The translations under genes and the position numbers were made by a program. Positions 1 to 47,900 of a stretch of DNA of 64,000 nucleotides are shown one piece after another. The stretch comes from Amphiscolops sp. MND2022. Taxonomy: Eukaryota. Position 1 is the first letter of the stretch; every line of letters begins with the position of its first letter. The DNA is taken from NCBI GenBank assembly GCA_964187785.1, contig OZ076409.1, positions 79,176,001-79,240,000 of the forward strand, read 5' to 3'. Under the pieces are notes generated by a model. That model was not told the DNA's origin and searched no databases. It saw only the letters and a program-made list of their open reading frames with translations.

Positions 1-298
1 GGATCTCTGCCGTAGTCTTGGTCGATATACGTTGGGTTAAAGTTCACGACTAGGGGAATGGGCCTGAATCGGGTATTGAAGGTGGTGGTGTAATCAGGGT
101 CCCAAACAGAATTTGGTTTTTGGAATAAATGGGTGTTGTTATAGGTGATGGTGATAGCTTTGTCCATCTGTTGTTGCCAGACAACAGAGGGATAGCCCAT
201 CAATTGTTGTGTATACTGATGAAAAGTTTTTGTTGGAGGATCCGACCTGATGTATTGGCGGACGGATATCAGTTCGTTGTATTGGAGTCGTGGCGAAG

Positions 299-1993
299 TT
301 AGTTTTTTGACTCATCATTGGGATATGAGGATTGGGAGCTCGATGATGTCGGTTTGGTCTGAGGTTTCTGAGCCTTTGAATTGGGCTTATTGTCAGTTGA
401 GTCTTCGGGCCTAGTGCGTTTGGGTTTAAGATGTGCACCAGCACCTTGCCAACATCTTTCCTCCGGGTGGTTCTTTTTGCCACAAGTGCTACACTCCGGA
501 TATGTTTTCTTCTGCGTCGATTTGCCTTGTTGGGCATCTTTCTCTTTTTTCTTTTTCAGTTTTTCGCAGTCCTTGACCATGTGGCCCTTTTCCTTGCAAT
601 AATTGCAAGTGATATCGGACAGTTTCCCTGTGGACAGAGGCGTTTTAGGTTTTGTAGATGAGGAGGCCATTGTGGCCATTGGTAGGTCGTCTGACTCCTC
701 GAGGGCGTTAAGTTCCAATTCTCTCTCCAAATGAGCAACGATCTCGTCGTATGAGCCATTTTCTAACCTGGCCATGTTGACGGACCGCTTCAGTTTTGGT
801 GGCAGTTTTGCGTAGAGTAAGCTGTCAATCAATTTCTGTGCATGATCACCAAACGCCTTCTCGGCTCCCTGGTTTAATTCTTCGAGAAAATCAGGCAACT
901 TCATCGTATTGGGATCGAAGACCAGACGGTGCCATTTATGTTTGGCAGTCGTCTGTGACTCGGGCTTGACGTACTTTCGTCTAAAGATGACTAATACGTC
1001 CTCTAGAGTTTGTCGGTTGTTTGAGCTGATATTTCTGAATGTCTGAAGAGCATTCTTCCTCAATAAAGAGTGGAAGTGATTGATCTTCATTTGCTCAGTC
1101 ATTTCTGGCTGCATCTTGATCATAGTGTGAAATAGGTCTTCGAACAGCTCGAATTTCTCACTTTTGCCATCGAATGTCATGGTATTTGAGTTGACTGGGC
1201 GTATGGTAAGTTGTTGGGCCGTCGGTCTATTCTGCATTGTAGTCAAGACGTCTGCCAGTCGAGTGATAGGGTCGGAGTCAGCAGCCGTAGCGATTCTCTC
1301 TTGTGCCGGGATCGTCGTGTCGAGGTTGATGTCCTCAAAGGACCTGTCGAGATGATTTCTGGATGAGATTCGTCCTGTGAGAAACTCAGGAACTGGATTT
1401 GGAAATTCGTTGTCTCCTGTCACCATGTCATGAACATTACGATGTGTTTTATCACCGTGTTCATTATTAGGAGTAGATTTAGTTTTCGCGTTGTACTGAA
1501 CTTCGGAGTAACTTTCCGGTCTCTCATCAGATCTCTCCCATCCCCTTCTAGTCTCCTGTCCTGAACCGGCCATAATAACGTTTTGAATTTGGGGCAAAAC
1601 TTGGTTATTGATGGCGTCACTTATGGCTCTCTGGATTTGAGAACTAACACTGTTCATCATCTCATCCATCTCCCTAGATATTCTAGAGTTCAGTTCACTC
1701 GATAACTTATTGATCTCAGCCTGAGAGTCTATACTCGCTGAATTTCGGTCATAACCGGCACTAGTCCCAGTTTCGGGATTTCTATGGTCAGAATGGAGAT
1801 TCATTTCCTCATTTTCTAAGTTATTACTTGCAACACTTTCTTGCCTTCTAATGGAAGTTCCATCGAGGCTTTCATCTCTCCTCATGTCACTTGAGTGGTT
1901 TTCACCTAACATTATGTCAAGGTTTTCAATGTCAGAGAGAATTTCTAATCCTCTAGATTTCCTTGCTTTCTTCTGCTTCCTTGTAGTAGGCAT
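299..1993 (-). CDS. gag: Gag polyprotein (564 aa), second A unit
   Basis: Capsid-like TFDGKSEKFELFEDLF region; zinc knuckles CNYCKEKGHMVKDC and CSTCGKKNHPEERC. Confidence 0.93.
   Translation of the reverse strand: MPTTRKQKKARKSRGLEILSDIENLDIMLGENHSSDMRRDESLDGTSIRRQESVASNNLENEEMNLHSDHRNPETGTSAGYDRNSASIDSQAEINKLSSELNSRISREMDEMMNSVSSQIQRAISDAINNQVLPQIQNVIMAGSGQETRRGWERSDERPESYSEVQYNAKTKSTPNNEHGDKTHRNVHDMVTGDNEFPNPVPEFLTGRISSRNHLDRSFEDINLDTTIPAQERIATAADSDPITRLADVLTTMQNRPTAQQLTIRPVNSNTMTFDGKSEKFELFEDLFHTMIKMQPEMTEQMKINHFHSLLRKNALQTFRNISSNNRQTLEDVLVIFRRKYVKPESQTTAKHKWHRLVFDPNTMKLPDFLEELNQGAEKAFGDHAQKLIDSLLYAKLPPKLKRSVNMARLENGSYDEIVAHLERELELNALEESDDLPMATMASSSTKPKTPLSTGKLSDITCNYCKEKGHMVKDCEKLKKKKEKDAQQGKSTQKKTYPECSTCGKKNHPEERCWQGAGAHLKPKRTRPEDSTDNKPNSKAQKPQTKPTSSSSQSSYPNDESKN
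1414..1425 (-). promoter_or_regulatory. Primer-binding site of the second A unit
   Basis: TGGTGACAGGAG directly after the LTR end at 1426. Confidence 0.8.
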
Positions 1994-3176
1994 TAAGACT
2001 GAATCGGGTTGAAAACTTGACTTATCAATTCCGGAAAATTAACAGTGTAACCGTTTGTATTATGAACATCTTTATCAAAAGAGAGAAGCACAAAGTATGA
2101 GTCTTCCTGCAGGGGTATGGGTATTTATACCCCTGAAAGTATGACACACACATTTTTACATATTTTGATCAAGACAAATCATAGAATTTTACAATCAACA
2201 TAGGAAAATCCCCGACAACTACATATTTCCGGGGGACATTTAAGGAATGGCATTCAGAGTCATCATTTTAAGTAGCAACTTCAAACAATTTATCGGTTAG
2301 ACCTACTTCAAGTGTGATGTAAACAAATACCACAGCCTGCATTTTTTATGGCAATGTAAAATGAAGGCACGTGCCGGCACAAGTTTACTGCAAATTAGGC
2401 TGAAAACGGAATGTATTACTATGTGTGGAATTCTAATACTGCATCGATATTCACGAAAATACACTCGCATATCAGAGCCGGAATGGGCCCAAATCCATAA
2501 CATGTACTGCGCATAGGAAAGACATGGTAAAAGGCCTTAACCGTCCCTTTATCCAAGTTAAAAGTATACAAACATCAAAACATCACAAACGTATTTATTT
2601 AGACTAAAAACATGCTTCTAATAACTCGGCGTAAGTATTGATCCTTTTAGGCAACAAAGGTATCATTATGCTCGAATTGGCCGAAGCCGTCCATTTGACT
2701 GGGGGACTGATATAAATTAGCACCGCTTAGTCAATTGGTCATATCCGGCCATCATAAATAAAGCACTCATAATTAGCAAAAGGAGAGCTCTGATTGGCTA
2801 ATAACTGTACTGAAAGTTACATCGCCGAGAAGGGACGTTTTCTTACTTGAACACGTTTCCTTCTCGCGATCAGCCTGCTTATTGTACGTTACCGCTTTGA
2901 TTAATTTCAACACTCTATTTGCAATACACCGAACTTCCTTTTACAAATCTCAAATCACAACCTGATTTGGATAGCTTCAAATCGCAATTTTAACAGACTA
3001 ATATCACGAACAATTATATAAAAATGCACTTGAATAAACAAAACGAATGTGATTAACTAGTAAATATAAGTTTCAGTAAGGGAAAGATTAAAACGTGGGT
3101 AGGGTACCTGGGACAATTTCTTGATTTTCCGCTGACGTCGTTATTAATGTGCCGTCGCAGGCGGCAGGCTGCGACA
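1426..3176 (-). repeat. LTR of element A (3' LTR of one unit, 5' LTR of the next), 1751 bp
   Basis: Matches 15747-17498. Minus-strand termini TGTCGC...ATGACA, followed directly by TGGTGACAGGAG. Confidence 0.92.
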
Positions 3177-3873
3177 CTGCGGGTGTTATGAAGAGGAATG
3201 CCCCGGCGTTGAGACCGTTCTCATATGCTTCTCTTCTGATTTCCGTGATGTACTCAGGCTCTCCTCGCGGCTGGGACCTTGCAACATACCATTCTACTTT
3301 CTCTTTCTTTATTGCTTCTGAGGATCTGCCACACACCATACAACCAGAATACAGTTTGTTGCTTACGTCCTCGTACGGCCTTGTGTTCTGTACGTGGAAC
3401 GACGCGTGAAAACCACCCATTGTATGCTGCATCAGGGGGGTGTCCAAACTTGGCCCTCTCTCATGGTCAGGCGGTGACATGGGTGACTCTGGCACTGGTA
3501 ATAGAGTCTTGCAAACCTCTATTCTTGACTTTCCCAACTTCTTTGGGGGAGCATAACACATCTCCTGGTCAAAGTACCTGTGGTCAAATTTCGGAGTCAC
3601 ATCTGTTCGCATCTGGGAAGAACTGGGGCCAGCTTCTGGTTCGTCTCCTGAAGGTTCCTCCATAGTCATTATGCAGCCCCCAATTAGCATGGGGCTGGAG
3701 GTGACTTCCCTTTCGATTCTTGCAATAAGTTGCTCCGTGTATGTGGAGCAGTCGGTTTCCCAGTCTGATGACTCTTCCTCACTGCTGGAAATGTATATCA
3801 CTGACCTTTCAGAATCATCTGAGTCGTATTCCTCCAGATCGAACAATCTTCTAGCTAAGTTGTATTTGCTCAT
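3088..3873 (-). CDS. ORF3 of A (261 aa): acidic N-terminus, CxxC domain, ends inside the 3' LTR
   Basis: Intact ATG ORF whose C-terminal region is homologous to 38086-39135 of element B. Confidence 0.75.
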   Translation of the reverse strand: MSKYNLARRLFDLEEYDSDDSERSVIYISSSEEESSDWETDCSTYTEQLIARIEREVTSSPMLIGGCIMTMEEPSGDEPEAGPSSSQMRTDVTPKFDHRYFDQEMCYAPPKKLGKSRIEVCKTLLPVPESPMSPPDHERGPSLDTPLMQHTMGGFHASFHVQNTRPYEDVSNKLYSGCMVCGRSSEAIKKEKVEWYVARSQPRGEPEYITEIRREAYENGLNAGAFLFITPAVSQPAACDGTLITTSAENQEIVPGTLPTF

Positions 3874-4919
3874 GATTACGTTTTTTGCTATTTTTGAAGC
3901 TATTCGTAGTGACTGTATTGAAGAGAAGTTTGTAGTAGAATGAATTTGTCAGTTTTAAGATTTTAGCCGAATCAGGCCTTTTCCCGAACTTTCCAGTTCG
4001 GCGGGAGAACCTTAGGTTAATCGTCCCGATTTGTCGTAAACTTTCTAAATGGAATTTTATAATTAGTCGGCAACCTTTGATAATACGGTGTTTACCCTCC
4101 ATCAGCACCATCATTCTGAGAGGTGTTAATGACGCTTGAGTTGTAAACATTATCTCCACCCGTTTCAAGTGGGTAATTAAAAGTTTGCCTGAGAGCGATT
4201 AACGGCACGCGACGCGGAATTCTTTCAAAATGGCTTCAGCCAATCAGCTTTAAGCTTCGATAAATTGCAAAATTAAATAATAAAAATGGCGAAAATAATA
4301 AATCCAAATAATTCAAGATGGCGAAAATTCTAACTAAAAAGTAACTAAGGCAACTGAACGAAACGGCAAAATAAAACAGGGCAAACGGCCATAATCGGCC
4401 ATTAATTAAATAGGCTGCAAATAATGAAGATCTTTGTACACTTCGCTGGCAGACTCCATGTACAGAATAAATATGTAAATAACCAAATAATATTAGTCTG
4501 GTAAACTTTCTTCAGCCACGAACTCCAACTTCTAAATTCTATTACCCCATTTTAATTCCAGTTCAATTCTGATTATTTTACTTCTGCTTTCTTTATCTGA
4601 AATCCTTCATCAGACAGCTTTCGCTACTCATCTTTAACTTCGCCAACAGCCTTCTTCTCTGAAGTATCCCCGGGACCCGTCCCTAATCCGGATTCGGCCA
4701 GATTCTACAACTCTGGAACCTGATTGGTTCGACATTGATAGGCGAAGCAGAGCAGAATGTCTTCAGTTGAAGGTTGGTTTGCTTTGGTTTTGAACCTAAT
4801 TTAACTTGATCAGGGCTAAATTTGTTCACAAAATGCTTCCTGTTTCCATCAGTGAACACGTGATAACACGTTTTATTCAAATTTTCAAAGTAGTTCCGGA
4901 AGTTTTCTAATGCGGTAGA

Positions 4920-7900
4920 ATGGATTTCTTTCAAGGAAGCTCACCGCCAAATTTCATCTCCTTCTGTTCAGAACATCAGAATGTTGATGAACCACAAGTC
5001 CAAAGCAACACTAGAACTGGCAATCTCACTGGGCCTCCTCAACGTCCAGTTCCCATTTCAATGCCCAGCAGTGTACCTTCTCCTCCTACATTTCCCCCAG
5101 TCAGAGCTGTTCTCAGTCAAACAATGCAGATGGCTGTTGATTCTCCTTTCAGCAATGAGAGCAACATCGATGTCACCACTTATGCGGATGAGATGGTTCA
5201 GCGAATGGAAATTTCCCAAGGACTCAATGGTGATGATCCTGCTCGCCACGATGAGGAAGGTCCATTTACGGCCCAAATCCCAACTGCACAGGCTACAATT
5301 CGGGATCCTGAGTTTGTACGCTCAAGCACTCCAAATCCATCCAACCAGCCTGGGGCTACAGTAGTCAGTCTTTCCCAGCTTGAATCATCCCTCTCCGTTG
5401 TGCCAAAGGCACAAGCTGACCTCCCTGAATTACAAGTCAACCAGGACCAGACTCAAGAGGTGTCTGAGGCTTCATTCCTTCAGTCTGAAGAGAATGCTTC
5501 ATCCTCAGTCAATGAACCACCGCCACTCCCTGGGAGAAATGAGCGGGCCAAAGCCTCGGGTTAACATAGCGACACCAATCAAACACTGGAAAGTGTAAGT
5601 CAGTCCGAAATCCCTGCTCTGTATGGAACAAACCCCTTTGACTCTGTCCCACTATCTGAGGGAGGTGGCGAATCTGGGTCTGAGATTCATGACCCGGGCC
5701 AACCGGGCACGTCAAGGGCAGGCCTACCGGTACAAGGTGAAGTTCTGCGGGATCTGTCAGGACGGGGTAGAGCAACCCTGAAACAGTATTTTGAGACTGA
5801 GGACCCATACACCTTCCCTGTCGGACAAAGGGTCGTTGCCTCCACTGAGCCACAAGTCTACCATTTACTCCGAGTTTTGACTGATGAGGCCATAAATATG
5901 ACTTGCTCCACTATGGAGAAGATGGTAATTGGAGCTGTCAGTGGGACACTTGCAACAGCCCCTTCACGGACTGAAAGATTTCGGTCAGTAGCTCATTCCT
6001 CTACTCCAGGTCCCAATCAATGTGTTGGGTCCAGCTCCGAAGGGATTCTGACTGGATATGGTTCAGGATCAGGATCTCAAGCTGACACGAGCATGCTTCA
6101 GAATGTCAGCGACTTCTTCAATCCTGATGAGAGTGATGGTGCCACGGAGATGGCCCTAATTAACCAAGCCTTTGGCATAACCGCTTCTGGGAGTTCTCCT
6201 CCTGCAGCACAACCAGGACAGTCACGAGGCCTTTCTGAGGAAGGAACTGAGTCAGCCGAAAAGAGTAGCCTCGATGCCACATTGTCCGAGGTCCGTAACC
6301 GGTCTTCTGCCCAGAAGTCCCGTCAGGTAGTTGTGACAGCCAAATCTGCTAAAGCCAAAAGGGGACGAAAGCGCGGAGTACCCATGAGGGAGGAGTTTTT
6401 CTCCAAAATAAGGTGGACGAGGTCTTTCATCTCTGGGCCAACTGACCCTCTCCACAACCCACACATGGTATGGTGCCACATGTGTAAGAAAAACTTCAGC
6501 ATTAAAACCAAGGGCACCGTTGAAATCTTGCGCCACCATAGAAAAGAAAAGCACCTACGTCGTGATCAAAGGTGGAGATATGAACACCTCAGAACAACTG
6601 ATTCGGTGACCGGAAAGATTCAACATCGGGTTCGTGGGAGGAATGGCATAATCCTCAATAAGAGTGAATTAGCCCATGAACTGCCTAAATTCATCCACAC
6701 TGAGCTCATCGATGTAGGAGAGAGACACCCCTTTTATGAGGATTATCTGAAGGGTCATACTTCCGCACCTGTTACGCCTCAGTCGCGGTTGCGGACTCAG
6801 ATTTGCCTTGTTGGAGACTTTGTCCAAAGTTCGGGAGACCTGGCTCTACTTCGTAAAATGTGGGCGAGGGCTGGCAACTATACAGGGTATCAAGCGGCCT
6901 TCCAAGGCTTCGATTGGAGCGAAGATCATATAATGGTAAGTTTATTCAACTGCTTCTCATAGAATCATGGTTAGCATAACAGAGGGTTAGAAAAGCAGCA
7001 GCACATAGTCTTCCAATTTTGTTCCATTTCAGGCCGTCTTCCAACACATCTTCAATTGCATGATGGAAGACGTATCCAATCAGGTTGCCGCATCCCAACA
7101 TTTTGGGATCGAATTTGAGAAGAGGGGGACCAATCGCTACATGTACTTCCGATTCTGGAATGGTGCCCAGCTTTGTCGGATCTTCATCTGCCGGAGTGGT
7201 CTTACCGGCACTGGGCTTAGTGAAGAACTGGGCTCTCTGTCACGGCTGTTGTCCGTCATTTCTACAACCCCCGATGTAGTCGCCATCTCAGGATGTGCCG
7301 TCGACCTGATCAGGACAGTGGACAAACATCCCACTTACCCTCGGGGCGTGCAGAGCTGTTTCCGCTTCGAGTGCCTCAACCTCCAAACGCTGATGCACAA
7401 GATGAATTACAGTGTGTTTGGCCACATTGACATGTTCTCGGTGCTTCAAGGCCTGCTAGTTTCACTTGGAGGATGCCTCTCAGAAGACTGGATCATTGAA
7501 TCAGCTGAACTCGTTCGAGTAAGTTCACTTTGTGAATTCAGTCTGTAAGGTACTAGTGTGCAAAGATAAACTACACCAATTGGCCTCTTGATCCTAAGAG
7601 CTGTAACGTTCTAGGCGATTACAACTTGTACACTCGAAGTGAAAAAGATACCAGATTTGTGCCGGGACCTGCTAAAGAAATGGAAGTCAATTCTGCGATA
7701 CCTCTCAGTCCAATCTCGCAGACAGGAAAACCAAGGAGTCCACAATAAGGTTATATCTCTTTTATGGTACTTATTTCCTTTAGGAGGAGTTCATGCTAAT
7801 TGCCACCCTTTTGGTAATGTGGGTAGGGTTATTTGTCTCGTATTCCCCCGTGTCTTTCGCAGGTCCAGAGTTTTGAGTGGTCCCTTATCATGGACAATTT

Positions 7901-9181
7901 CTTCACCGCCAAATTAGAGCTGTTCCAGCGCCTGGTCAGCGATTGTGAGCATTTCCTATTTCGTGATAGTCACTTTGGTCAGTTGTCCTTTTAAGGACCT
8001 TTAGATTTTGTATTTCAGACGTCACCAGTTTCGCTATCAATCTAGCTCAAAGACGGGACGCTTCCTTCTTCCTGTGCGGAGAGATATGCAGGTACATCAA
8101 TCGTCTCTGTTTTCGTGTTTTCCGACCCGACACCGTGCCATTAGACAATGCCTGGTTTCTGTTAATGGACTTCCAGCTTGGCCAAGGCACACTCATGGAC
8201 GATGAAGACTTCCTGGTGCGTCTTAAGATAGCCAGCAGAGTTGCCACTGCCTGTAACCTGAAAGCAGCCGGACTCCACTTTAACAAAAAGTCCAGTAAGG
8301 CAGCCATTGCCAAAACAGCTGAAGTTGCGAAGTCAGATTTTGTGTCCAGCGCCAAGAACTTTTTCAAATTTCTGTTGTCAGAGGTCCTCCAACACACAGA
8401 GCTCACTTCTGACCTTATCAAGGGACTAGCCGCGTTCGATCCCTTTGTTTTTTTCCAAAGGCCTGTGGAAGTCGCCTTACGCCATTTCGACTATTTGTAT
8501 TCGACATTCCAGTTGCGTTGCTGGGTCTCTGCATCGAATGAGTCAGTTTGCCGAGATGAATATGTGGCCTTGTTGGACTATCTCCGTACCAATCATTCCA
8601 CCGAATTCGGTTCCACTAGTCATTCTCCTGACCTCATTGACTTTTTTATGGGTTTAGATTTCCTTCAAACCCACGACCACATTTGAAACTTGTTCAAGTT
8701 GAGCTGTTTGTGTATAACATCTGTTAGCCCCCAGTATCCCCCAGTGTCTTTTGGAAAGATTGACACGAGAGGACTTCAGTCCCGTTTGACAGACGTTATC
8801 TTGCCCTGCCAGAGTTACTTGACATCAGTGCCTGATTCCCTGCTTGCCTGTTGCACTGAGTCCCGACTTGAGAAGTTCTGTCATTTGTCCACTTCGTTTG
8901 GACAATCAAGTTTCGCCGCCGATTATGACCCTTGGACCTTCGTAGACGGTTTCGGCAGTTCTGCTATTTACAAGACTCTTGTGGCATCTTATCGTTCTGT
9001 TCTCGCTGGGTCAGACTTCCATTTTAGGAGTCCCACTCTTCCTGATGTTTCTTCTGTGCAAGACGCACCTGCTGTCAAGTTGCCTAGCGAAAACAAACGT
9101 AGACGGATGAAAAGGAGTTGTTCCCGTAGTAGATCCTCATCTGTCATTGAAGAATCCCCTGCTGATAGCTCTAAAAACTAA
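4920..9181 (+). pseudogene. Antisense spliced gene in A: zinc-finger + hAT-transposase-like protein (~1293 aa). Exons 4920-6935, 7033-7518, 7615-7749, 7863-7944, 8019-9181
   Basis: GT-AG introns join the ORF fragments in frame. WCHMCKKNFSI...ILRHHRKEKH finger; LAAFDP; C-terminal LFKLSCLC segment. In-frame stops at 5562-5564 and 8684-8686. Confidence 0.8.
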
Positions 9182-9423: not shown

Positions 9424-12400
9424 CTAGTATCTGTAGTCTTCTGAGTAGTTTGGGTTGGGGTTAGGCCTGAGATTATATTTCCCTCCTCTGGGCTCAGACT
9501 CTCATTTCTAGCATCATTTTCAGATATTTCGGGCACGATAATATCATCTCCCTGTTTGGAGAGTTTTGTGTATCATTTTCATTCGCCAAGTCTCTTTCTG
9601 AGAAATTTTCATTGTTTTCCGGTCTATTTGCCGTATTCGGCAAGGATGTTTCTTGGTTTTTTAGGGGAACGGCCGAATTCGGCCAATCCGATTCTTAGTT
9701 TTCTGTCACTGTAGTAGTTCCATTTCTTTTAGTGACGTCATCACTTAAGCGATCGTTCTGGCTGTGCGTCGCATTGTCGTTGTTTAATTCTTCTCGCGTG
9801 ATTATGTAATCCGCCTCGTTCTCGTCTGCGTCACTGTGACTCGGTTCTGCCGCGTTCGGCCGTTCGCCGTTCGGCATGCTAGTCGGAATAGGATCGTGTC
9901 CTTGTGTAATTAGCTGCTCGCCAAAATCTGTTTCCCACGTTATGATATATAAGTTGTCTTGCGGAATGACGATTTCCTCATCAGGCTGTAACCGCTGTTC
10001 TCGGAAATTGTCCTCAAGCGGTTGGTTAGGGACAAACTTTTTAAGACGGATCCGATGCAAAATTTGAGTCTTGTTCGTATTAATCCGTCGTACTATGTAG
10101 TTTTCATTTGGCAAAACTTTTTGGACTACAAATGGTCCAACCCATCGATAATCGCGGAATGGAATTTTTGATCCTTGATTGTCCGCTTTCGGCTGTAGGA
10201 CAAAACAGTACTCGCTCTCCTTTAATGGAATAGCTTTCGCCTTGCGATCGTAATATTCCTTGTATTTAATGTACGATTGCATAATATTCTGCTTCGTCTT
10301 GTCAATCAGGGTTTTCGTCCGGTTTTGGATTTCTTCAGCAAATTCGGTTGTAGGGCTGATCTTTTCGTTTGGATTATTTCCAAGCTTGTGATCCAGAATA
10401 TTAAATAGAATTCTTCCATGGAATACTCTCGTCGGCTCACAACCGATGCTGGCGTGATAACTAGTATTATGATTCAGTACTGCTAATGGCAAGTATTTGT
10501 GCCATTGTCGGCGATATTCCCCACATGCCATTTTGAGATTTTTCAATGAGGCATGAGTTCGCTCCAATTTCCCAATTGTCTGCGGGTGTTTTGTCGTTGC
10601 ACATTTGAATGTGATGCCCAAAATCTGCGTAACCTCCGCAATAATTGTAGAAGTAAATGCAGTACCTTTATCAGTGATAAGAGTCGTTGGTAGATATGAG
10701 TGTTTAGTCATAATGTCTATGAGCGCTTTTGCTACATTGATCGCTGATGCGTCCGTAAGGGGGTAGGCGAACAAATATCTGGAGAATACATCAATTGCCG
10801 TTAGGACATTTTCATATCCTCCACTTGGGGGAAGGTTCGGCAATAGGTCGATTTGCATGGCGTCTTCAGGTCCAAGGTCCCATTCGGGCAAGTTGAGCAG
10901 TTCAGGTGTGATCGTTGCGTTAGGAACTCTTTTGTCTCTGGCACATTGTTCGCACCCTTCTACCCACTTTTTGACGTGTTTAGCCATGCTAGGGTAGTAA
11001 TTACTCTGTCTAATTTCCTGCAACATTTTTGAAATCCCAGGATGTTTATGTGCTGTCCCGTGGAGAGACTTAAGCAGTTATTGAAGTAAATGTTGCGGGA
11101 GCAGAATTTGATGGTAATTAACGTTCCCTGTTTCATCAAAGTATTGCCTTGTCAGGATTTCGTCCTTTAGTACAATTCGTTCCAGATTATTTGCATAGTT
11201 TCTGTATCGGGCATCCTGTTGCAGTATGTTTTCTGAATAATCTTCATGAAGGAGTTTTGCCTTCAATTGTTGTAATACTGCATCCTTGGATTGTTCAATA
11301 ATGATCTGGTTCGTTTTCCTCAATCGGATTTGTATATCGGGGTGTTGCTTGACCAGATTTGTTGACAAAGTTTGTATAGTAACAGTGGGCTCATCAGTTG
11401 CTGGATTTTTCCTGATTGCTTCTTTTCTTGCCCAGTACTGTTCCTCTGTCTCATCGTCGTCATTGGTGTAGAAGATTTGTTCTTCTTGCGACACTCCTGC
11501 GGATTGGACATTGATTTCGATTGGTAGTGTTTGTACATCTTCACGAATTTTCATCACCAATTTGTCCTTTGGATCTGCTTTCAATCGAGACAAATAGTCG
11601 GCAGCTGTATTTTGTGCCCCTGGGATGTGTGCTATGACAAAATTGAACTGAATGACATAATCACACGCGTTCCACAGGGGTGGGGGTATTATTTTTGTTT
11701 GGAAAAATCTCGTGACAGCTTTGTTGTCCGTAAGGATGATGACCGGTTTCGGCGCACCCCAGAAGATATTTCCGAATTCTTTGAATGCAAAATAAATTGC
11801 AAGGAATTCCTTGGCATAAATTGACATTTTGATCTGTGCTGGGGTGAAAATTTTTGATCCATATGCGACTGGTGCATACGATTTTCTGAGTGACGTAAAT
11901 TTCTGGCTTGGGTCGTCTTCGATTAGGACCGCGTACCCGGCTGCACCAAAACTTGCATCAGTCATTAGTGCTATTTGCTTGTTTGGAATGGGTTGTTGTA
12001 AGGCCAAGTCGCAACATTTGTCTGGTGCTTTGTTGATTTCTTCGAATTGCTGGACTAATTCTTTCGATACTAGGACTTTTTCGTCACTTTTCAGCATCTT
12101 GTAGAATGGTGCAAGGCGTTCGGAAAGTCTTGGGACATAATTCCTGTAGTAGTTTAGGAATCCTAAATATCGTTGTAAAGCCTTTTTCGACTTCGGGGAT
12201 TTGGTCTTTTCCAGAAAGTTTTGCACGTTCTGTTTCTGGGGTTTGACGCCTTGTGGGGTAATAGTCCGTCCGAGAAAATCGATTTCTTTTGCACCGAAGT
12301 GACATTTGTGCATTGTTAACTTAAGGCCTTTTTCCTGAATGCATTTGAACGTAGCTCTCAGGTTCGTCATGAGATGGTCACCATCATTGGCTGCGATGCC

Positions 12401-14629
12401 GATATCGTCCACATACTGGGCACACTGATCCGCTTTATTGACTTTGTCTAGGTATTCCCTCATGAAACTCGAGAATGCGGATAGTGACCGACTAAGGCCT
12501 TGTGCCAAACGTCTGTAGGCGAATGTGCGACTGGCAAAATTGAAAGCCAACATTTCGATTGAACGTTGGTCGGCCATTGGTAGGCAGTGGTATGCCTGCG
12601 AACAGTCTAATTTACAGAACAGTTTTTTGCCTGCCAAGTGTTGGGCAGCATCAACTAGTGTACTGACGGGGTGATTATTGTTGATATAATCATCTGAGAT
12701 GAGGTTGTTGATTTTTCTCAAGTCAACCAAGAGTCGGAGTTTCCCATTCGGCTTCTTTTGTGCGAAAATTGGACTCGCATATTTCGAAAATGGCAGTGTA
12801 GTTATTATGCCATATTTGTGTAACATGGCTAATTCAACTAGGATGTCCTCCTTCAAGTTGATAGGAGCTGGGAGGCTTTGACTATAGGCTGGGGAATCGT
12901 CCTTAGGCGTCAGTTTCACCTTGAATTCCTCGTTCACGCCTATATCAAATCGGTGTCGTGCAAAGATGTCATGGAATTCCACTAACAATTCCTCAATTTT
13001 CTCCTTCTCTTCAGGAGTAAGGGTGGAATTTTTCCAGTCAAAGTTTTCTAAGAATTTTGCACGCGATTCTGCATCTGTAGTGGGGTCGAGTGTCTCTAGG
13101 TCCTGTAGGGCCTGTAGCTCGCGTAGGATTCGTTTTTGTATAGGTGTGTGTTCCTCAGGATTTCCAGGATTTTCTGGAGTTGGGAACCAATACTTTTCGG
13201 AGTTTTGTGGATTTCTATTGGTCTTGATGAGACTGCTGACATAATGGGCTGCTTGCTCCTGGTCATTCTGCAAAAGGTGCCAGGTTGATGCCGGATCTAC
13301 CGGTTTGACATACTTCATCTGTTCTGGCGTCATGACTGAGAAATTGGCAATATGAAGTCCCTTTTTGAGTTTATAAGGGTGATCTGTGAAATTGTTCACT
13401 GGTATCAATGTATTGCGGTCATTCAGAGTGACCAAAGCTGGGCAAAATGTGATGTCGCCTTCTTCGTGTAGAAGGTCGCTCGGTTGCAAAATTCCAGTGA
13501 CAGCATTCTCGGGGTAGAGTAGGGAATTGGTCCTAATTAGGACTTTATCATTTGGTGGAATAGTTATCTCAATAGGGTTGAGAATTGGTTCCAATATATT
13601 TGAATACTTATGGTCAGCCGTTTTGAGCTGCATGGAAAAGAACGGGAAATTCAGTATCCCTTGTCGCATGTCCAGAACTGTATGGTTTCTTTGGAGGAAC
13701 ATTAGTCCGATGATCGGGCCTGTCAGATGTTCCATGACTATGAAAATCTCGTGAAACTCGATGTCACCAACTTCAAATTTGAGCTCTATTGTACTCTTAG
13801 GAGTTTCCAATTGCCCATTAGCGACCATTATTTGGAAATTTGGAGGCGGACCTTCCCGGATGACAGATTGTGGAGATAAAAGTTGAATTTTCCGGAGGTC
13901 CATTTCAGGAATTGCACTGGACAGCGCTCCAGTGTCAATGAGTCCGTCAATGGTCAATTCCCCGAAGTCCATTGGGAAATACAACATGCGTTTTTTGCAT
14001 TTGAGGTTGATGTTGGTTGACAGGGGTATACAGTCTGGTTCACCGTCTCTAGTGATTAAGACATTCTGGAACTGTTTCTCGTCTAGCAATGATTGTGGTA
14101 TAGTTTCAACATTGCTAACATGGGTCTCGGTCCCCAATGGGTTTGGAAACACTGGATGGTTTGTGCCATCATTCATTTGCCAGTTTTCAATTAATGCTCT
14201 GGTCTTCTTATTGTGGGTGATTGGAGGGTTCTCGTGGACTGTCCGATTGTAGTGTTCAATATCATCTAGAACGTATTGAAATTGTAATAGTTCTTGATTA
14301 TAGATCTCGGTGTCCCAATATGGATCTCTGCCGTAGTCTTGGTCGATATACGTTGGGTTAAAGTTCACGACTAGGGGAATGGGCCTGAATCGGGTATTGA
14401 AGGTGGTGGTGTAATCAGGGTCCCAAACAGAATTTGGTTTTTGGAATAAATGGGTGTTGTTATAGGTGATGGTGATAGCTTTGTCCATCTGTTGTTGCCA
14501 GACAACAGAGGGATAGCCCATCAATTGTTGTGTATACTGATGAAAAGTTTTTGTTGGAGGATCCGACCTGATGTATTGGCGGACGGATATCAGTTCGTTG
14601 TATTGGAGTCGTGGCGAAGTAAGTTTTTT
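9424..14629 (-). pseudogene. pol: Pol polyprotein of A (protease, RT, RNase H, integrase), interrupted
   Basis: LIDTGA protease, YVDD RT, TDAS/TDNK RNase H, HHCC plus DDE integrase, WVGPF motif. In-frame stop at 11078-11080; stop at 9695 plus a frameshift before the conserved tail YNLRPNPNPNYSEDYRY* ending at 9424. Confidence 0.93.
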
Positions 14630-16314
14630 GACTCATCATTGGGATATGAGGATTGGGAGCTCGATGATGTCGGTTTGGTCTGAGGTTTCTGAGCCTTTGA
14701 ATTGGGCTTATTGTCAGTTGAGTCTTCGGGCCTAGTGCGTTTGGGTTTAAGATGTGCACCAGCACCTTGCCAACATCTTTCCTCCGGGTGGTTCTTTTTG
14801 CCACAAGTGCCACACTCCGGATATGTTTTCTTCTGCGTCGATTTGCCTTGTTGGGCATCTTTCTCTTTTTTCTTTTTCAGTTTTTCGCAGTCCTTGACCA
14901 TGTGGCCCTTTTCCTTGCAATAATTGCAAGTGATATCGGACAGTTTCCCTGTGGACAAAGGCGTTTTAGGTTTTGTAGATGAGGAGGCCATTGTGGCCAT
15001 TGGTAGGTCGTCTGACTCCTCGAGGGCGTTAAGTTCCAATTCTCTCTCCAAATGAGCAACGATCTCGTCGTATGAGCCATTTTCTAACCTGGCCATGTTG
15101 ACGGATCGCTTCAGTTTTGGTGGCAGTTTTGCGTAGAGTAAGCTGTCAATCAATTTCTGTGCATGATCACCAAACGCCTTCTCGGCTCCCTGGTTTAATT
15201 CTTCGAGAAAATCAGGCAACTTCATCGTATTGGGATCGAAGACCAGACGGTGCCATTTATGTTTGGCAGTCGTCTGTGACTCGGGCTTGACGTACTTTCG
15301 TCTAAAGATGACTAATACGTCCTCTAGAGTTTGTCGGTTGTTTGAGCTGATATTTCTGAATGTCTGAAGAGCATTCTTCCTCAATAAAGAGTGGAAGTGA
15401 TTGATCTTCATTTGCTCAGTCATTTCTGGCTGCATCTTGATCATAGTGTGAAATAGGTCTTCGAACAGCTCGAATTTCTCACTTTTGCCATCGAATGTCA
15501 TGGTATTTGAGTTGACTGGGCGTATGGTAAGTTGTTGGGCCGTCGGTCTATTCTGCATTGTAGTCAAGACGTCTGCCAGTCGAGTGATAGGGTCGGAGTC
15601 AGCAGCCGTAGCGATTCTCTCTTGTGCCGGGATCGTCGTGTCGAGGTTGATGTCCTCAAAGGACCTGTCGAGATGATTTCTGGATGAGATTCGTCCTGTG
15701 AGAAACTCAGGAACTGGATTTGGAAATTCGTTGTCTCCTGTCACCATGTCATGAACATTACGATGTGTTTTATCACCGTGTTCATTATTAGGAGTAGATT
15801 TAGTTTTCGCGTTGTACTGAACTTCGGAGTAACTTTCCGGTCTCTCATCAGATCTCTCCCATCCCCTTCTAGTCTCCTGTCCTGAACCGGCCATAATAAC
15901 GTTTTGAATTTGGGGCAAAACTTGGTTATTGATGGCGTCACTTATGGCTCTCTGGATTTGAGAACTAACACTGTTCATCATCTCATCCATCTCCCTAGAT
16001 ATTCTAGAGTTCAGTTCACTCGATAACTTATTGATCTCAGCCTGAGAGTCTATACTCGCTGAATTTCGGTCATAACCGGCACTAGTCCCAGTTTCGGGAT
16101 TTCTATGGTCAGAATGGAGATTCATTTCCTCATTTTCTAAGTTATTACTTGCAACACTTTCTTGCCTTCTAATGGAAGTTCCATCGAGGCTTTCATCTCT
16201 CCTCATGTCACTTGAGTGGTTTTCACCTAACATTATGTCAAGGTTTTCAATGTCAGAGAGAATTTCTAATCCTCTAGATTTCCTTGCTTTCTTCTGCTTC
16301 CTTGTAGTAGGCAT
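14590..16314 (-). CDS. gag: Gag polyprotein (574 aa; the TAA of the other copy is TTA here, adding 10 aa)
   Basis: Near-identical to 299-1993; two CCHC knuckles. Confidence 0.93.
   Translation of the reverse strand: MPTTRKQKKARKSRGLEILSDIENLDIMLGENHSSDMRRDESLDGTSIRRQESVASNNLENEEMNLHSDHRNPETGTSAGYDRNSASIDSQAEINKLSSELNSRISREMDEMMNSVSSQIQRAISDAINNQVLPQIQNVIMAGSGQETRRGWERSDERPESYSEVQYNAKTKSTPNNEHGDKTHRNVHDMVTGDNEFPNPVPEFLTGRISSRNHLDRSFEDINLDTTIPAQERIATAADSDPITRLADVLTTMQNRPTAQQLTIRPVNSNTMTFDGKSEKFELFEDLFHTMIKMQPEMTEQMKINHFHSLLRKNALQTFRNISSNNRQTLEDVLVIFRRKYVKPESQTTAKHKWHRLVFDPNTMKLPDFLEELNQGAEKAFGDHAQKLIDSLLYAKLPPKLKRSVNMARLENGSYDEIVAHLERELELNALEESDDLPMATMASSSTKPKTPLSTGKLSDITCNYCKEKGHMVKDCEKLKKKKEKDAQQGKSTQKKTYPECGTCGKKNHPEERCWQGAGAHLKPKRTRPEDSTDNKPNSKAQKPQTKPTSSSSQSSYPNDESKNLLRHDSNTTN
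15735..15746 (-). promoter_or_regulatory. Primer-binding site TGGTGACAGGAG (tRNA-Leu-like), element A
   Basis: TGG-starting 12-mer immediately after the LTR-terminal CA. Identical 12-mer at 1414-1425 and in element B. 11/12 match to the complement of the usual metazoan tRNA-Leu(CAG) 3' end, recalled from memory. Confidence 0.8.
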
Positions 16315-21223: not shown

Positions 21224-21459
21224 CGTGAGGCGACATTTATTATTGCTGGAAAGTGGCATTTGTTATCAAATTGAAAATGCGACATTTGTTGTCAAATCTA
21301 AAAAGCCGACATTTGTTATCATAAAACACTATACATATTTTGATAACAAATATCGCCTTTTTAGATTTGATAACAAATGTCGCTTTTTGAATTTGATAAC
21401 AAATGTCTCATTTTCAAAAATGATAACAAATGTCGTTTGATAACAAGTGTCGCTATACC
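21224..21459. mobile_element. Mutator/foldback-type MITE with internal GCGACATTTGTTATC subrepeats
   Basis: Palindromic array; 9-bp duplication GTCCTGTTC at 21215-21223 and 21460-21468. Confidence 0.8.
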
Positions 21460-40619: not shown

Positions 40620-43600
40620 ATGGAGTCTGGTAGTCGAAGGAAATCACGCAAGGACCAGATTACGAGGCGACAAGCTGCATCGTGGGGGTTCAAATCTCCC
40701 ACTGAGACTTCTCCTGGTTAGTTCAAATTTGTTTTCGTTTTGATTCAGATCAGGGTTTATTTGATTGTGGGGTTTATCATGCAAAGCTGGCCAGGCTTGC
40801 AATCAAAAATAACCATTATATGATGGTTACGATTTTCAATTTTCGGTACCGGTTTTCTTCAAAACATATTTGTTTCGAGTTGATTTAAGGGCGGAAGTAG
40901 AGTGTTTCATTTCTTTCACCGCGTCCGATTCAGATTCAAACCAAACTACTTCCTGTGATTTATCTGCTTCCGCTTCCGCTTTTAGCAGTTAGTTGTTTGT
41001 TTTAGTTGAACTAGGAGCTACTCAGAAATCACCTTCCCGATCCCCGACGAAGATTTATACACCTCTTCAAGTTGCTGAGCCTGGTCAATGCAGTCGTTCT
41101 ACTCCTGATATTCTTCAACAAACTACGGCTGTAGAGGATAGTGACGGGATTGAACGCGTATCCTTGACTAATTTAGCTGAATATCCCAGCTTTGTACCGC
41201 TCCTGGTCCTTGATTCTACTGACGGGGAAGAGAATATTCCAACTGAGGAGATAGTACTGTCCGATCAAGAGACTCCAGATATGAGTGCCGCCAATTCACC
41301 ATTGCCTCAAACGCCCCCCGTTGTGACTGAGAAGCGAGAGCCAACTACTAATACTACCACTTCTCCCCGCTTTACTGAGTTTCTCCGAACCCTCCGAGGA
41401 ACTATTGTCCCTACAGGAGGACGCAAAAATGTGGGAGTAGATATCCCACTTTCATCTGATGTGGAAGAAGCGGAGCCTGAGGTTGATGGAACAAAAGAGT
41501 CTGCTGAACATGCGGAGAACAATGATTTGGAGGCAGATCTATCAACTGATTCTTTGAGTGGCCTCGGAGGAGAGACAGATGGTGAAATGGTCCAAAAAGT
41601 CACCATCACACAACGTGAAGCAATTGCCTTAACGAATGTGCTGGACAAGATTCCACGAACGGTAATGCGGCAAGACAATCAAGCTACAGTTGACAACATT
41701 ACTTTGACCGTAGTTGACAAGCCTTCCAACCCACCTGAACCAAATGTACAAGATGACGAACAAGGGGGTTCCGCTGAATTTCTTTCAGGGGACAGTAGAC
41801 CTAATCCGAGTCCTGACGATCGGCCAGTTCTGCGGGGTAAGAGGCGAAGGCCGAAATATTCGCTAACTACCGCCATGCTCAAGAAGCACCCTGTGGTGCA
41901 ATATTTCGCAACGGGCCCTCTCGACAGGAGCAAAAGCCCCTACAAATGGTGGTGTCGTGTCTGCAGGATTGAGCTGTCCCTAATGAGCAGGGGGGTGCTC
42001 GAGTTATTGTCACATTTTCGGACCGAGACTCATTTACTAAAGGAGCATCGGATTCGTCTCGAAACACCCGGGTTACCCCTGTTCGATCAGAATGAAAATG
42101 AATTGCATGGAGTGGGGTTACAAGAGGCCAAGAGAAGAGCCAGGGAGTCCCATCCCATCGCCCCCCAACTGGACAGTTGTCGTCTACTTGTGGGCCAGGA
42201 CAGGCTACCGGAATTCAGCTCAACCACGAACCCGAGTGAGAGCGTCCTCGCTCAAATTTGCATTCTGGAACACGGGCTACGTCATGGTGGGCATGTTGAC
42301 CTTCTACTTGGAATTTGGGAGGATATGACTCGGCTAACACCAGGGAGCAGCGCTCAGACAACTTCCCACAACTGGACCAAACATCGACTTTATGTAAGTA
42401 TTATTGCTCTCTAAAGTTTGCTTCGTATGATTTCTCTGTTTTCCAAAAGGTTGTCTTGTTTAGGCCATCATAACTTACATGTTCCGAGAACTGATGCATT
42501 ACTGTGTGGTTACAACTGGCATTACTGGAATCTGTTCATTGCCGTACCAGACTTCTTTTACTGCCAACTATCTTTACTTGAATTTCTGGTCGGGTAACAT
42601 CTATTATCAAGTATGTTTGGGGTCTGGACCACGAGGGATTCTTTTACCCAAAAAGATTCTCACTTTAATCTCCTCCTATCTGAGCCTATTCGAGAATCCG
42701 CCCAACTGCCTCAGCCTAATCAATTTCGATGAAAGACTCAGCACTAGTTTGAGTTCATCGCTCCCTGGAAGGAAGCGACCTATGATCGTAACTGCATTCG
42801 GTCCCACTGAATTGGAGAAGTGTCTTGCGATGCCCACATCCCGCATTCTAGAGAGACACGATTTCAGAACTATTCTCGATTTCTGTTGATGAAGTTAAGG
42901 ACTGCACTCGATCAAGAGTGGTTGCAATCCGTTCCAGTTCTCCATAAGGTATAATATTTCCCTCATTTTGTGTTCAAATGTATTTTTCATCAAGGTGTCC
43001 AATCTTTTCTGTTTTTGTAGTGTGTGTTGCAACTGTCGTATAATTTGGAAGAAGCATCATCACTCATCGCACTACTCTCAGCCAATTGGGACAAGGTGTT
43101 GGAACACCTAAACCGGATTTCACGTCTGCCAGCTTTTCGGTTCCATATGAGAGAGGTAATAACTTGTTTCGCCATCTTTCCTTTCTATTATTGTAGTTCT
43201 GTGAACTAATCTTCATGGATTGTTTTAGCCCAGCACACTAGATGAGTGCTTCAGGCTTGATACTGCCTACCTCGCCAGGCTGTTTGTCATTCGCTGCGTA
43301 CTGGATCATTGTTAGTATCAATTTATTCCACTAAGATGTTGCTCACTTGGTATAGAAAATTTCGCTTCCAAACCTCCGTTTCTTTGAATCTTTCCAATTT
43401 CTTCAGAGATCATTTTTTATAGGCGCACATTCTGTCTTTTTGTAACTCTTCTTCTTTTAGTGGTAATTAGAGCATTACCGCAGGATGACGGATATACGTC
43501 ACTTCAATTTCCGCGTAGTACCGCATATGCGGTATCTCTTTTTCCGTATAATGCCGCATAATCATCGTCAGAAATCCTGCCTTTTGCTTGATTTCAGCAT

Positions 43601-44746
43601 AATACCGCATTGAAATAGCTCGTTTTTACAATTAATGTATCTTCCGCGTATGAGATTACATAATCGTCTTGTCCTGTTTCAGATACTTCAGCCTTCTCTG
43701 AGACCGATTCAGGATATGGAGCTGGGTTCAGACTGTTCAACCAATTTGCTGTCTTCGTGTATAGTCAGCTCCAAAGTCTTTTGCCAGACAGCGTCCTAGG
43801 AAGCATCTCTGATTGGGATAATTACTTGAAATTGGACTTAACCCAGGCAGACCTCCCTTTCAAGAGTGCCGACGATTTCGTTTTGAACTCTGATTTCCAC
43901 CGACTTGTTACTTCAAGTAAACTACCAAGACCAAGCAAATTCATCGACCAGTCTATTGCTTTTTACAAAGCTTTCTGTCGCATTCTGTTACAACACAAAA
44001 TTGTCAAGTCCGATCTTATTCGAGGGCTCTCCTGCTTTGACTCTGTCATGGTTCTCGACGGAGGAGAGGATCGGTATATTTCCGCAATAGAGCAGCTAAC
44101 GAGTCACTTCGCATCGCATGGCAGCATAACAGCAAGCGATAAGACCAAAGCAATTAGTCAGTACAGGGCCCTGGTGGTCAAGTTTCGCTCTTCGCAAATC
44201 GATCGGACAGTGGATTGGTTTACATTCCTCTCTGGCCACTATGAACTGCATTGTCGACCAGAACTGCATCAAGTTTTCAAGTACGCTTGCCTCTGTCTTC
44301 CACCAATGGCGAAGTTTACTGTTCGTTTTGAGGTCCCCATACCAGAACTTGGCCCTGATGAGGAGGTATTTCAGTCCTGTGTAACCAGCATTCAGGTATC
44401 TTATGCGACGGTGCCTAATGTGAGCAGTCTGTTTCGTGATCCTCGATCCATTAATCGTGTCTTCCGCTTGATAGGGAAAGGCAAAGATTTGCTCAGCGAT
44501 CGCAAGTTCTCAGTGTGGAATTTCCTTAAAGGCAGTGGATTCCGCAGGACCAAATGGCAGACGAAGTTCGAGAATTCATATAAGAGTGTGGTTGCTAGGA
44601 GAGAAGAAGCGCTGCTTCCCGACGATTCTGATGTTCCTTCTGCTAGTCATTCATCTAGTAATGCTAGTTCACCGGCTTCACGAGCTTTAACTGGTAAAGT
44701 TACACTGTCAATGCCGCGCTGTGTCGATGAAAGGAAGGATGATTAA
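40620..44746 (+). CDS. Antisense spliced gene in B: zinc-finger + hAT-transposase-like protein (~1083 aa). Exons 40620-40716 (tentative), 41006-42393, 42464-42948, 43021-43155, 43229-43310, 43683-44746
   Basis: GT-AG introns in matching phases. WWCRVCRIELSL...LLSHFRTETH finger; LSCFDS; RPELHQVFKYACLCLPP. One 1-nt deletion near 42881. Confidence 0.8.
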
Positions 44747-44956: not shown

Positions 44957-47900
44957 TTAATATCTGTATGTGTCAGAGTAATTTGGGTTGGGGTTAGGTC
45001 GTAAATTGTATCTATCACCACGGGTATTTATGGGTTGTTCTTGTGATGGGGTATTTTGTGGATTTTCTGGGGTTTTTTGGGTATCATCATCAAGTGAATT
45101 ATTTGCGTCTTTTTGGGTTTTTTGGGTACTTTGGTCATCTTCAATGATTTGTTGTGGTTTTTCATTTTCGTGGTTTTCATCCGGTTCAGTGGTCTGTTCC
45201 ACTGGGCTCCCCCCACTATTTTTTGAAGATCCTGGGGAGGGTGGGCGGTTTTCTTCAGGTATTTGAATTGGAATGTATTCTGTGTCTTCAGTATTTAATG
45301 AATATTCTGAAGGACCATCATCAAAAGGATTTGAACCAAAGTTCGTGTTCCATGATTGGGCATATAGGTCATCATTTGTTATAGGCATTTGGTCATCTTT
45401 TTGCCAATCAGTTTCTCGGACAAAAATGTCTGCTAAGGGCGCTTGCGGAGTGAATTTCCGTAGACGAATCCTGTGTAACAGTTGCGTTTTGTTAGTCCCG
45501 AGTCTCCGGACGATGTAGTTTTTGTTAGGGAGCACTTTTTCTACTTTATATGGCCCGCACCATCTGAATTCTCGGAATGGTATTTTCGTCGCTTGAGTAT
45601 CGGCTTTTGGGTTAAGAATGTAGCAGTAATCCGTTGTTTCGAGCGGAGCTGCTTTCGCTTTACGGTCATAGTAAGCTTTGTATTTGAGATATGATTGCAT
45701 GATGTTCTTTTTGGTTTGATCTAGAAGGATTTTCATGCGTTTTTGAATTTCTTCCGCTACATCTGCTTGCGGTTGGTATCTTGGGTTAGGATTGTATCCA
45801 AGTTTGTAGTCTAGGATATTGTGTGGTATCCTACCATGGAAGACTCGTGAATGTTCACAACCGAGTGATGCATGGTATGTGGTGTTGTGATTGAGGACTG
45901 CCAAGGGGAGGTATTTATGCCAGTTGTTCCTGAATTCGCCTGTTGCGGCTTTTAGGTGCATTTTCACTGATGCATGTGTTCTCTCAAGGAGTCCTATTGT
46001 TTGGGCATGTTTCATTGTTGCGTGTTTCATTTCAATTCCAAGTACTGCCGCAACTTCGTGAGTTACTTGTGCATTGAATTGAGTGCCTAAATCCGTGATT
46101 ATCGTTGTTGGAAGGTATGTATGTTTGCATAAGATGTCCATGATAACCCTTGATACTGCTGTTGCAGTAATACGAGTTACAGGGTAGGCAAACAAGTATT
46201 TTGAGAAGACGTCTATTGCTGTGATAATATGGTCATAGCCTCCACTAGGGGGAAGGTTTGGTAAAATGTCCATTTGCAAAATGTCTTCCGGACCGAGATC
46301 CCATTCCGGACAGTTAAGAAGTTCTGTCCTAAGGAGATCATTGTTGATGCGTTTCGTTTGGATGCAAATTTGGCAATTACTGACCCATTTACTGATGTAT
46401 TTTGCCATACATGGGTAGTAATATTTTTGTCTTGCTTCTTGAATCATTTTCGTAATTCCTGGATGGTTCGAATTATGGCCATGTAAGGCTTGAAGAAATT
46501 CGTCTAGGAGTTGGATTGGTAGGAGGATTTGGTAGTGAGATATAGTTCCAGTGTCGGTGTAATATTTTCGTGTGAGAACTTCCTGTTTAATTTCTATTCG
46601 TGTTATGTTTTGTAAGTAGTGCTGGTATCGGTAGTCTGACGCTAGTTCATTCTCGTCAAAAGGGTTTCCTTCGAGTTTTGCTCGGAGGTTTCTCAGGACT
46701 ATGTCGTTATTTTGCTCAAGGCGGATTCTTGCATTGTCCTTAAAGTATCCCGAAGAGCTGGAAATCAGACCTGATGCAGGTTTGTGGAATTGTTGTAGCT
46801 CGGAAACAGCATTTTCTGGATCATTGTGTGTTTCGGTTTGTGCTTGATTTCGAATGTTTTGCTTTTCTTCCCATAATTGATTTTCATCAATTTCATCATC
46901 TGGGAGGACATATATTTGTTCTTCTTCAACGATGCCAGTTGATTGAATGTTCACCTCAACCGCTTTCGTGTGAATGTCGTTGCGGATTGTGAGTTCCAGT
47001 TTTTCTGTTGGGTCGACTTCCGTTCTAGATAAGAAGTCGGCAGCAGTGTTCATTGTTCCGGCTACGTGGGCGATCACGAAATTGTATTGCAATACATAAT
47101 CGCAGGCATTCCAAAGTGCTGTAGGGATCATTTTTGTTTGGAAAAATCGGGTTACAGATCGATTGTCAGTAAACACGATTACTGGGAAGGTACTACCCCA
47201 CATGAGATGTCCGAATTCAACAAATGCAAAATATATTGACAGAAATTCCTTTGCATAAATTGACATTTTCGTCTGTGTAGGGTTGAATGTTTTTGAACCA
47301 AAGGCTATGGGTGCATATGTTTTGCGCTTTGATTGGAGCTTCTGGTTTGGGTCATCCTCTATCATGATAGCATATCCAGCTGCTGTGAAACTTGCATCGG
47401 ACATGACTATAAGTTGCTTGTTTTTCAGCGGTTGTTTTAGTGCTAACTGGCAAGAATTTTCTAGGAGTTTGTTGAGGTTCGTGAAGTCTTCTACCAAATT
47501 TGTCGGTACATAGAATTTGGAAGTTTCTTTGAGGAGTTTGAAGAACGGTGAGAGCCGTTCCGAAAGGCGTGGTATGTAATTTCGGTAATAGTTTAAAAAT
47601 CCGATATACCTCTGTAAGGCCTTTTTTGATTTCGGAAAGCGAAGCTTTGAGAGGAAGTCTCTTACTTTCTCGGCTTGAGGGGCAACTCCATCTGGTGTGA
47701 TTGTGCGTCCCAAGAAGTCGACCTGTTTCACTCCAAAGTGGCATTTTGACATGGAGAGTTTTAATCCTGCATTGCGTATGCATTCAAAGACAGTTCTGAT
47801 ATTGGTACACAGTTGTTTTGTGTTATTTGCCGCAATGCCAATGTCATCGACATAATGTGCACATTGGTCTGCTTTAATTGCTCTGTCCAGGTACTCTCTC

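Follow-up and report, generated by a model that had tools for sequence, protein, structure and literature searches.

The window, i.e. the whole stretch of 64,000 nucleotides that was analysed, consists of eukaryotic repeat DNA carrying two Ty3/Gypsy elements, A and B, both on the minus strand (Table 1). In both elements the genes are arranged in the order gag, pol, a multi-exon antisense gene, ORF3 and the 3' LTR. The hallmarks of LTR retrotransposons are present, including TGT...ACA ends and a 12-nt primer-binding site 3' of the 5' LTR. Pfam search of pol identified asp protease, RVT_1, RT_RNaseH, Integrase_H2C2, rve and Integrase_p58_C, in the order protease-RT-RNase H-integrase as in Ty3/Gypsy. 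Comparing the 3' LTRs with their 5' counterparts, which start at 17498 and 52394, placed the LTR starts at 3176 in A and 38132 in B. The LTR pair of A shows 33 differences over 1752 columns. Element B is flanked by the 5-bp target duplication GTGGT; this was examined for B, the far end of A falling outside the window. The identity between A and B amounts to 57% for pol, 47% for the gag core, about 24% for the antisense gene and 26% for the ORF3 domain, and this shared homology points to an inheritance of both extra genes with the element lineage.

Table 1. Positions of the features of elements A and B in the window
Feature	Position	Strand	Remarks
ORF3 of A, 261 aa	3088..3873	-	open frame; 163 homolog clusters among 596 candidates
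SIM-like VIYISSSEE of A, aa 25-33	3775..3801	-	hydrophobic core, then Ser/acidic stretch
ESPMSP of A, aa 129-134	3472..3489	-	
CxxC knuckle of A (C178, C181)	3331..3342	-	each Cys in 265/275 rows
Second helix of A, aa 207-227, with A216, G220, A223	3193..3255	-	predicted self-pairing surface
ORF3/3' LTR overlap of A, first 89 nt of LTR	3088..3176	-	contains C239; LTR comparison
Terminal hairpin at LTR start of A	3153..3176	-	one pair broken here, complete in 5' LTR
Candidate promoter motifs of A	4165..4246	-	CCAAT-like TGATTGGCT 4238-4246; CCACTTGA 4165-4172
Antisense multi-exon gene of A	4920..8686	+	ends approximate; divergent from ORF3
gag + pol region of A	9695..16314	-	
gag of A	14590-16314	-	ORF listing and Pfam
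pol of A, two frames	11078-14521 and 9695-11026	-	ORF listing and Pfam
Primer-binding site of A	15735-15746	-	
5' LTR of A	15747-17498	-	LTR comparison
3' LTR of A, 1751 bp	1426..3176	-	also serves tandem downstream copy
ORF3 of B, 349 aa	38086..39135	-	open frame; 115 clusters among 1947 candidates
SIM-like motif of B	39052-39075	-	
CxxCG of B	38284-38298	-	
Motif cores of B	CACTTGA 39428-39434; TGATTGG 40315-40321	-	-299; -1186
Antisense multi-exon gene of B	40623..44746	+	start approximate; homologous to that of A
pol, gag and 5' LTR of B	44957..52394	-	5' LTR = 50954-52394
3' LTR of B	36692-38132	-	

Several other properties of the window were recorded. Element A belongs to a tandem array in which copies are joined by one common LTR (window 1-3176 versus 14322-17498), and since the LTRs differ at 33/1752 positions and the internal parts at only 4/1425, recombination between subfamily copies is suggested. 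In A and B the gag frame starts inside the LTR, at a distance of exactly 568 nt from its end (1426-1993; 50954-51521), so that the primer-binding site falls inside it. At the gag ends, the heptamers AAAAAAC (A) and TTTAAAC (B), near 299, 14620 and 49835, are presumably slippery-site-like, suggesting -1 frameshifting into pol. Clusters of CCGCAT-type repeats, absent from A, occur in the LTRs and the intergenic region of B as well as in what appears to be an intron of its antisense gene (37615-37770, 40055-40170, 43477-43610, 51877-52032) and are candidate binding sites. In the LTR of B (37505-37550), back-to-back TATAAATA boxes surround a TTACGTCA/TGACGTAA inverted pair, an arrangement which is possibly a bidirectional LTR promoter. 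A third, more distant element is represented by an integrase gene (61043-63949) followed by a 1438-aa ORF without Pfam match (56032-60348, minus strand), and a 27-nt tandem repeat lies inside a 75-nt inverted repeat at 21250-21438.

The ORF3 protein family

A previous reading, made from the sequence alone, had described ORF3 as intact in both elements and had quoted motifs for each protein. Both frames are indeed open on the minus strand, and every quoted motif is found in its protein. The relatedness of the two proteins was confirmed by BLASTP (26% over 82 aa, E 2e-6) and by profile-profile comparison (91%, E 1e-6, 73 columns). Two of the motifs proposed as common were retained in part. SQP..C.G is present in both, but its proline is coincidental, being a minority variant in A: the 5' LTR of A itself reads SQAAACDG in the ORF3 frame, as do 28 of the 29 A-family relatives displayed (one of the 28 having E for D). 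In the same way (E/D)SPMSP occurs in both proteins, but the DSPMSP of B does not align with the ESPMSP of A and is retained only among close relatives of B.

A joint A and B profile recovered 474 representatives at E up to 0.001, 150 of which are listed. From 441 proteins 337 domain matches were aligned, and the 275 rows covering the core form 11 groups at 60% identity. The clusters looked up derive from ENA or JGI. Clusters found with A have up to 136 members. Several divergent groups sit on contigs of 1-3 kb, which may stem from other hosts; two such loci, L001 and L002, were retrieved as 1.3-kb contigs, and the adjacency of ORF3 to pol was seen in A and B only.

Between C178 and the LTR boundary (55 codons), every pairing of A, B, L001 and L002, six in number, gave a pS of 0.65-0.79 versus a pN of 0.34-0.56. 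Insertions and gaps in the core were found in 2 and 22 of the 275 rows, respectively, and full-length frames persist over hundreds of copies. Because the synonymous sites of the domain are near saturation while its frame is kept, these comparisons indicate that the ORF3 protein is under selection. Searches of Pfam, PDB sequences, BFVD and PDB folds revealed no known family, solved structure or fold, the fold search being a weak one as a two-helix model searches poorly. No likeness to CERV, Tas, Nef or VANC was found in these four libraries, to which the predicted model of CERV does not belong. A Spin-doc/BED-type finger (PF18658) was considered and rejected: 5 of 72 members scored 13.7-17.2 bits against a cut-off of 27.3, with the knuckle only and without conserved His.

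With 11 groups, selection at the protein level, retention in other copies and no match to a well-known domain, the description of ORF3 as a second accessory protein is upheld. Intact, selected, present in many copies and situated between pol and the 3' LTR, as is characteristic of additional ORFs, ORF3 is best explained as a lineage-specific accessory gene within a Ty3/Gypsy clade.

AlphaFold analysis of the C-terminal domain gave a confident helix hairpin (185-200 and 207-227) located C-terminal to the CxxC knuckle. When two copies of the domain were modelled with ESMFold2, a value of 0.55 was obtained versus 0.01 for the best control, with contact agreement of at least 45% and pLDDT of at least 57 across runs. 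The mark used for calling dimers was reached by 21/30 solved pairs and 0/23 single chains of microbes and by 17/29 solved pairs and 0/30 single chains of eukaryotes, although of seven eukaryotic pairs for which no older relative had been solved just one passed; the calibration set left out disordered or predicted chains, used no alignment and carried zinc along. The predicted interface centres on A216, Y217, G220, A223 and Y196, and four of these residues (Y196, A216, G220 and A223) are among the most conserved columns of the 275 rows. On this modelling, the C-terminal domain is predicted to form a homodimer. Three Cys are conserved (265, 265 and 257 of 275 rows), while the alignment holds no conserved His. 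A putative zinc site would therefore need C239, which lies in a low-confidence part of the AlphaFold model, together with another ligand, or two CxxC pairs.

The N-terminus of ORF3 is disordered and acidic: the AlphaFold model is of low confidence over the first 170 residues, and the net charge of the first 100 aa is -14 and -15. The SIM-like pattern was found within the first 70 residues of 162 out of 211 proteins with long N-termini, versus 0.7% in shuffles; as the pattern was derived from the ORF3 sequences themselves, this control speaks of conservation and says nothing of SUMO binding. Of the 49 proteins without it, many have a truncated N-terminus or deviate from the pattern by one residue. 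The motif is retained, by different codons, in subfamilies with otherwise unalignable N-termini. It has a four-residue V/I/L core and an acidic/Ser flank in a disordered region, and so matches the published definition of a SIM, which is described there as a loose motif (PMC12751080). The suggestion that ORF3 interacts with SUMO thus holds at the motif level only. As to the suggested nuclear location, only 2 of the 11 proteins tested have a basic cluster that could act as a nuclear signal. ESPMSP of A is possibly a proline-directed phosphorylation site; the looser S/T-P-x-S/T-P occurs in 163/211 proteins versus 5.8% in shuffles.

The LTR boundary and the region upstream of ORF3

The end of ORF3 runs into the 3' LTR, by 89 nt in A and 47 nt in B, and 16-30 codons lie within the LTR. 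As had been noticed earlier, the LTR start encodes SQ: TG completes a Val/Leu codon and is followed by TCG/TCA and CA(G/A) for Ser-Gln. Among the rows that span the domain, all 235 have V, L or M (NTG codons) at residue 233 and none has Ile, which is present in all six other aliphatic columns, and residue 234 is S, L or F; the wider 275-row set holds one exception at each position. The TGT end therefore lies in the same frame across the ORF3 family.

The first 19 nt of the 5' LTR of A are common to L001 and L002, synonymous sites included. Among codons for the same residue in A, L001 and L002, 17/23 are identical inside the LTR versus 26/69 outside. From this comparison, the LTR-encoded tail of ORF3 is judged to be constrained partly as DNA, i.e. 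as terminus and hairpin. The terminal hairpin has 9-10 bp, the variants of L001 and L002 being G-U compatible, and is weaker in B (6 bp). In this hairpin the LTR terminus is paired with the codon for C239, so that the conservation of C239 is ambiguous between protein and hairpin; C239 persists in B-type subfamilies whose hairpin partner codon has changed.

No long purine run was found beside the 3' LTR of A (3177-3206), B (38133-38162), L001 or L002. Purines make up 7 (A) and 10 (B) of the last 15 nt before the LTR, and only short G-rich runs precede the TGT end of L001 and L002. In the place of a polypurine tract the terminal hairpin comes next instead. Nine codons of the family thus do triple duty as protein, integration end and hairpin, beside an LTR without a clear polypurine tract, whose absence raises a testable question on plus-strand priming.

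ORF3 and the antisense gene diverge across 1.0 kb in A and 1.5 kb in B. The two antisense genes are homologous (tblastn E 6.6e-13) and contain apparent GT-AG introns, and no significant Pfam match was obtained. Their CxxC..H..H finger is, we assume, BED-like, and the gene presumably resembles a hAT-transposase derivative. Upstream of ORF3, TGATTGGCT was found at -373 (A), -455 (L001) and -347 (L002), and CCACTTGA at -298, -392 and -250, respectively, in the same order relative to TGATTGGCT. Any common 9-mer with a separate 8-mer was obtained in 2.3% of 5000 Markov controls (0.023), a figure to be read with the motifs having been chosen by eye. The shared CCAAT-like and CACTTGA motifs are a hint of an internal promoter upstream of ORF3. 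TGATTGGCT may represent an NF-Y CCAAT box, an element that typifies bidirectional promoters. In A, the ORF3 ATG is preceded at about 45 nt by a pyrimidine-rich AG, which is not evident in B. By analogy, expression by splicing from the 5' LTR is possible, a route described as usual for ORF3s (PMC5408684).

Possible functions of ORF3

In the reading that we prefer, an internal promoter would drive ORF3 in one direction and the antisense zinc-finger gene in the other, back-to-back, the ORF3 transcript ending at the 3' LTR. A homodimer formed via the A216/G220/A223 helix face would carry two disordered acidic arms with one SIM each and would bind SUMO-modified chromatin proteins. By competing with or redirecting SUMO-dependent silencing it would keep the LTR active, and thus work like an accessory regulator of a complex retrovirus without kinship to one. 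Since ORF3 has no recognisable DNA-binding domain, the antisense finger protein may bring it to the element, a putative partnership suggested by the adjacency of the two genes. SUMO-SIM contacts are described to recruit SetDB1/Wde in piRNA silencing (10.1101/533091), and SIMs are described to serve viral transactivators, e.g. CMV IE2 (10.1101/655282); for these two reasons we give slightly less than an even chance to ORF3 being a nuclear SUMO-binding regulator that promotes expression of the element. Against SUMO binding and a nuclear role stand the looseness of the SIM and the rarity of the basic nuclear signal, against a positive effect the fact that a SIM could equally recruit silencing, and against the internal promoter the position of the CCAAT-like motif of B, 1186 nt away.

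The more specific proposal of a two-gene anti-silencing module on one bidirectional internal promoter, in which an element-recognising antisense finger protein, encoded with introns, acts with ORF3 as a dimeric two-SIM effector from a new protein family that intercepts the SUMO-dependent formation of heterochromatin, is rather unlikely. If true, it would represent an LTR retrotransposon with regulation in the style of a complex retrovirus, whose target is the SUMO step in the silencing of transposons.

The same anatomy would also suit a self-limiting regulator, whose SIM recruits SUMO-dependent repressors, as described for SetDB1/Wde (10.1101/533091), or which sequesters element proteins and so caps copy number. 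The data fix no sign of the effect, but the high copy number (clusters of up to 136 members) speaks weakly against a strong brake, and we regard this function as improbable. To the same degree improbable is a CERV/Rev-like factor that protects or exports unspliced genomic RNA. It would be in keeping with the conserved Cys, the SP sites and the predicted dimer, but no link in sequence or fold was found, ORF3 is acidic and lacks a CERV G-like domain, and a conserved basic RNA-binding run was not found in it. A little less probable still is a cofactor of the particle or integration complex, which steers integrase to SUMO-rich chromatin or helps with plus-strand priming: a SIM and a predicted dimer suit a tether, and the four loci lack a long purine run at the 3' LTR, but priming may be taken care of in cis by the terminal hairpin, and nothing points to contact with Gag or integrase. 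Roles of ORF3 beyond those named here receive a small share of our expectation.

That the ORF3 frame is held only by DNA or RNA signals (LTR end, hairpin, promoter), with the protein being irrelevant, is very improbable: the excess of identical codons inside the LTR (17/23 versus 26/69) and the V/L/M at residue 233 in 235/235 rows agree with it, but account for only about nine codons, while outside the LTR pS is near saturation, pN is far lower and full-length frames exist in hundreds of copies. An env-like or fusogenic ORF3 is hardly credible: the gene does lie in sense between pol and the 3' LTR, the usual env-like site (PMC7264820), but, in line with the sequence-only reading, neither a signal peptide nor a transmembrane anchor was found when looked for (top 19-residue hydropathy 1.13 in A and 1.05 in B), nor any family match.

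Comparison with known systems

Additional ORFs in Gypsy elements are an already known kind of gene (PMC7264820), sense and antisense aORFs being described for plant Ty3/Gypsy elements (PMC7264820) and ORF3s for bdelloids (PMC5408684). Like these, ORF3 is an additional gene which is conserved in many copies and lies between pol and the 3' LTR, and some plant aORFs are described as nuclear, with their own promoter (PMC7264820). The sense aORFs in both accounts are env-like, membrane, coiled-coil or enzymatic proteins, unlike ORF3; the descriptions given there include no SIM-bearing CxxC helix-hairpin aORF and none that runs into the LTR end or stands back-to-back with an antisense finger gene (PMC7264820, PMC5408684). 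An ORF3-like family combining the SIM, the CxxC helix-hairpin dimer, the LTR-end overlap and the back-to-back antisense partner was not found in the literature searched or in the libraries.

The layout of a 3' accessory gene overlapping U3/att is itself not new, as HIV-1 nef is described as extending over U3 and as containing the polypurine tract and att in its coding frame (PMC11076291). No homology to nef was found, and ORF3 has only 16-30 codons in the LTR and no clear polypurine tract. Nef is a membrane-associated adaptor. The foamy-virus Tas/Bet are described as accessory regulators encoded at the 3' end, whose expression depends on an internal promoter; Tas acts as an activator of the LTR, and Trim28/H3K9me3 counteracts it (PMC8670036, PMC13220597). 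Tas itself binds DNA according to the cited account (PMC4929722), whereas for ORF3 we infer both promoter and activity, and no homology between them was found.

CERV of the C. elegans element Cer1 is likewise described as retrotransposon-specific, Cys-rich, phosphorylated and a predicted multimer, and as needed for gRNA export (PMC10309623). It differs from ORF3 in its 517 aa, an N-terminus common with Gag, a ring-forming M domain and a G-like domain, and SUMO is unmentioned in the main text of that paper (PMC10309623). VANC of Arabidopsis MuDR is described as a TE-encoded accessory anti-silencing factor and a predicted helical homodimer; it belongs to a DNA transposon, is plant-specific and MAIN-derived (PMC13547354), unlike ORF3, and no similarity to ORF3 was found. 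Only a few TE-encoded counter-silencing proteins are known, plant VANC among them, and SUMO-SIM contacts form a central step in silencing guided by piRNAs. In the titles and abstracts searched, no retrotransposon protein targeting this SUMO-SIM step was found, and ORF3 is a small soluble candidate for such a role which is open to simple tests.
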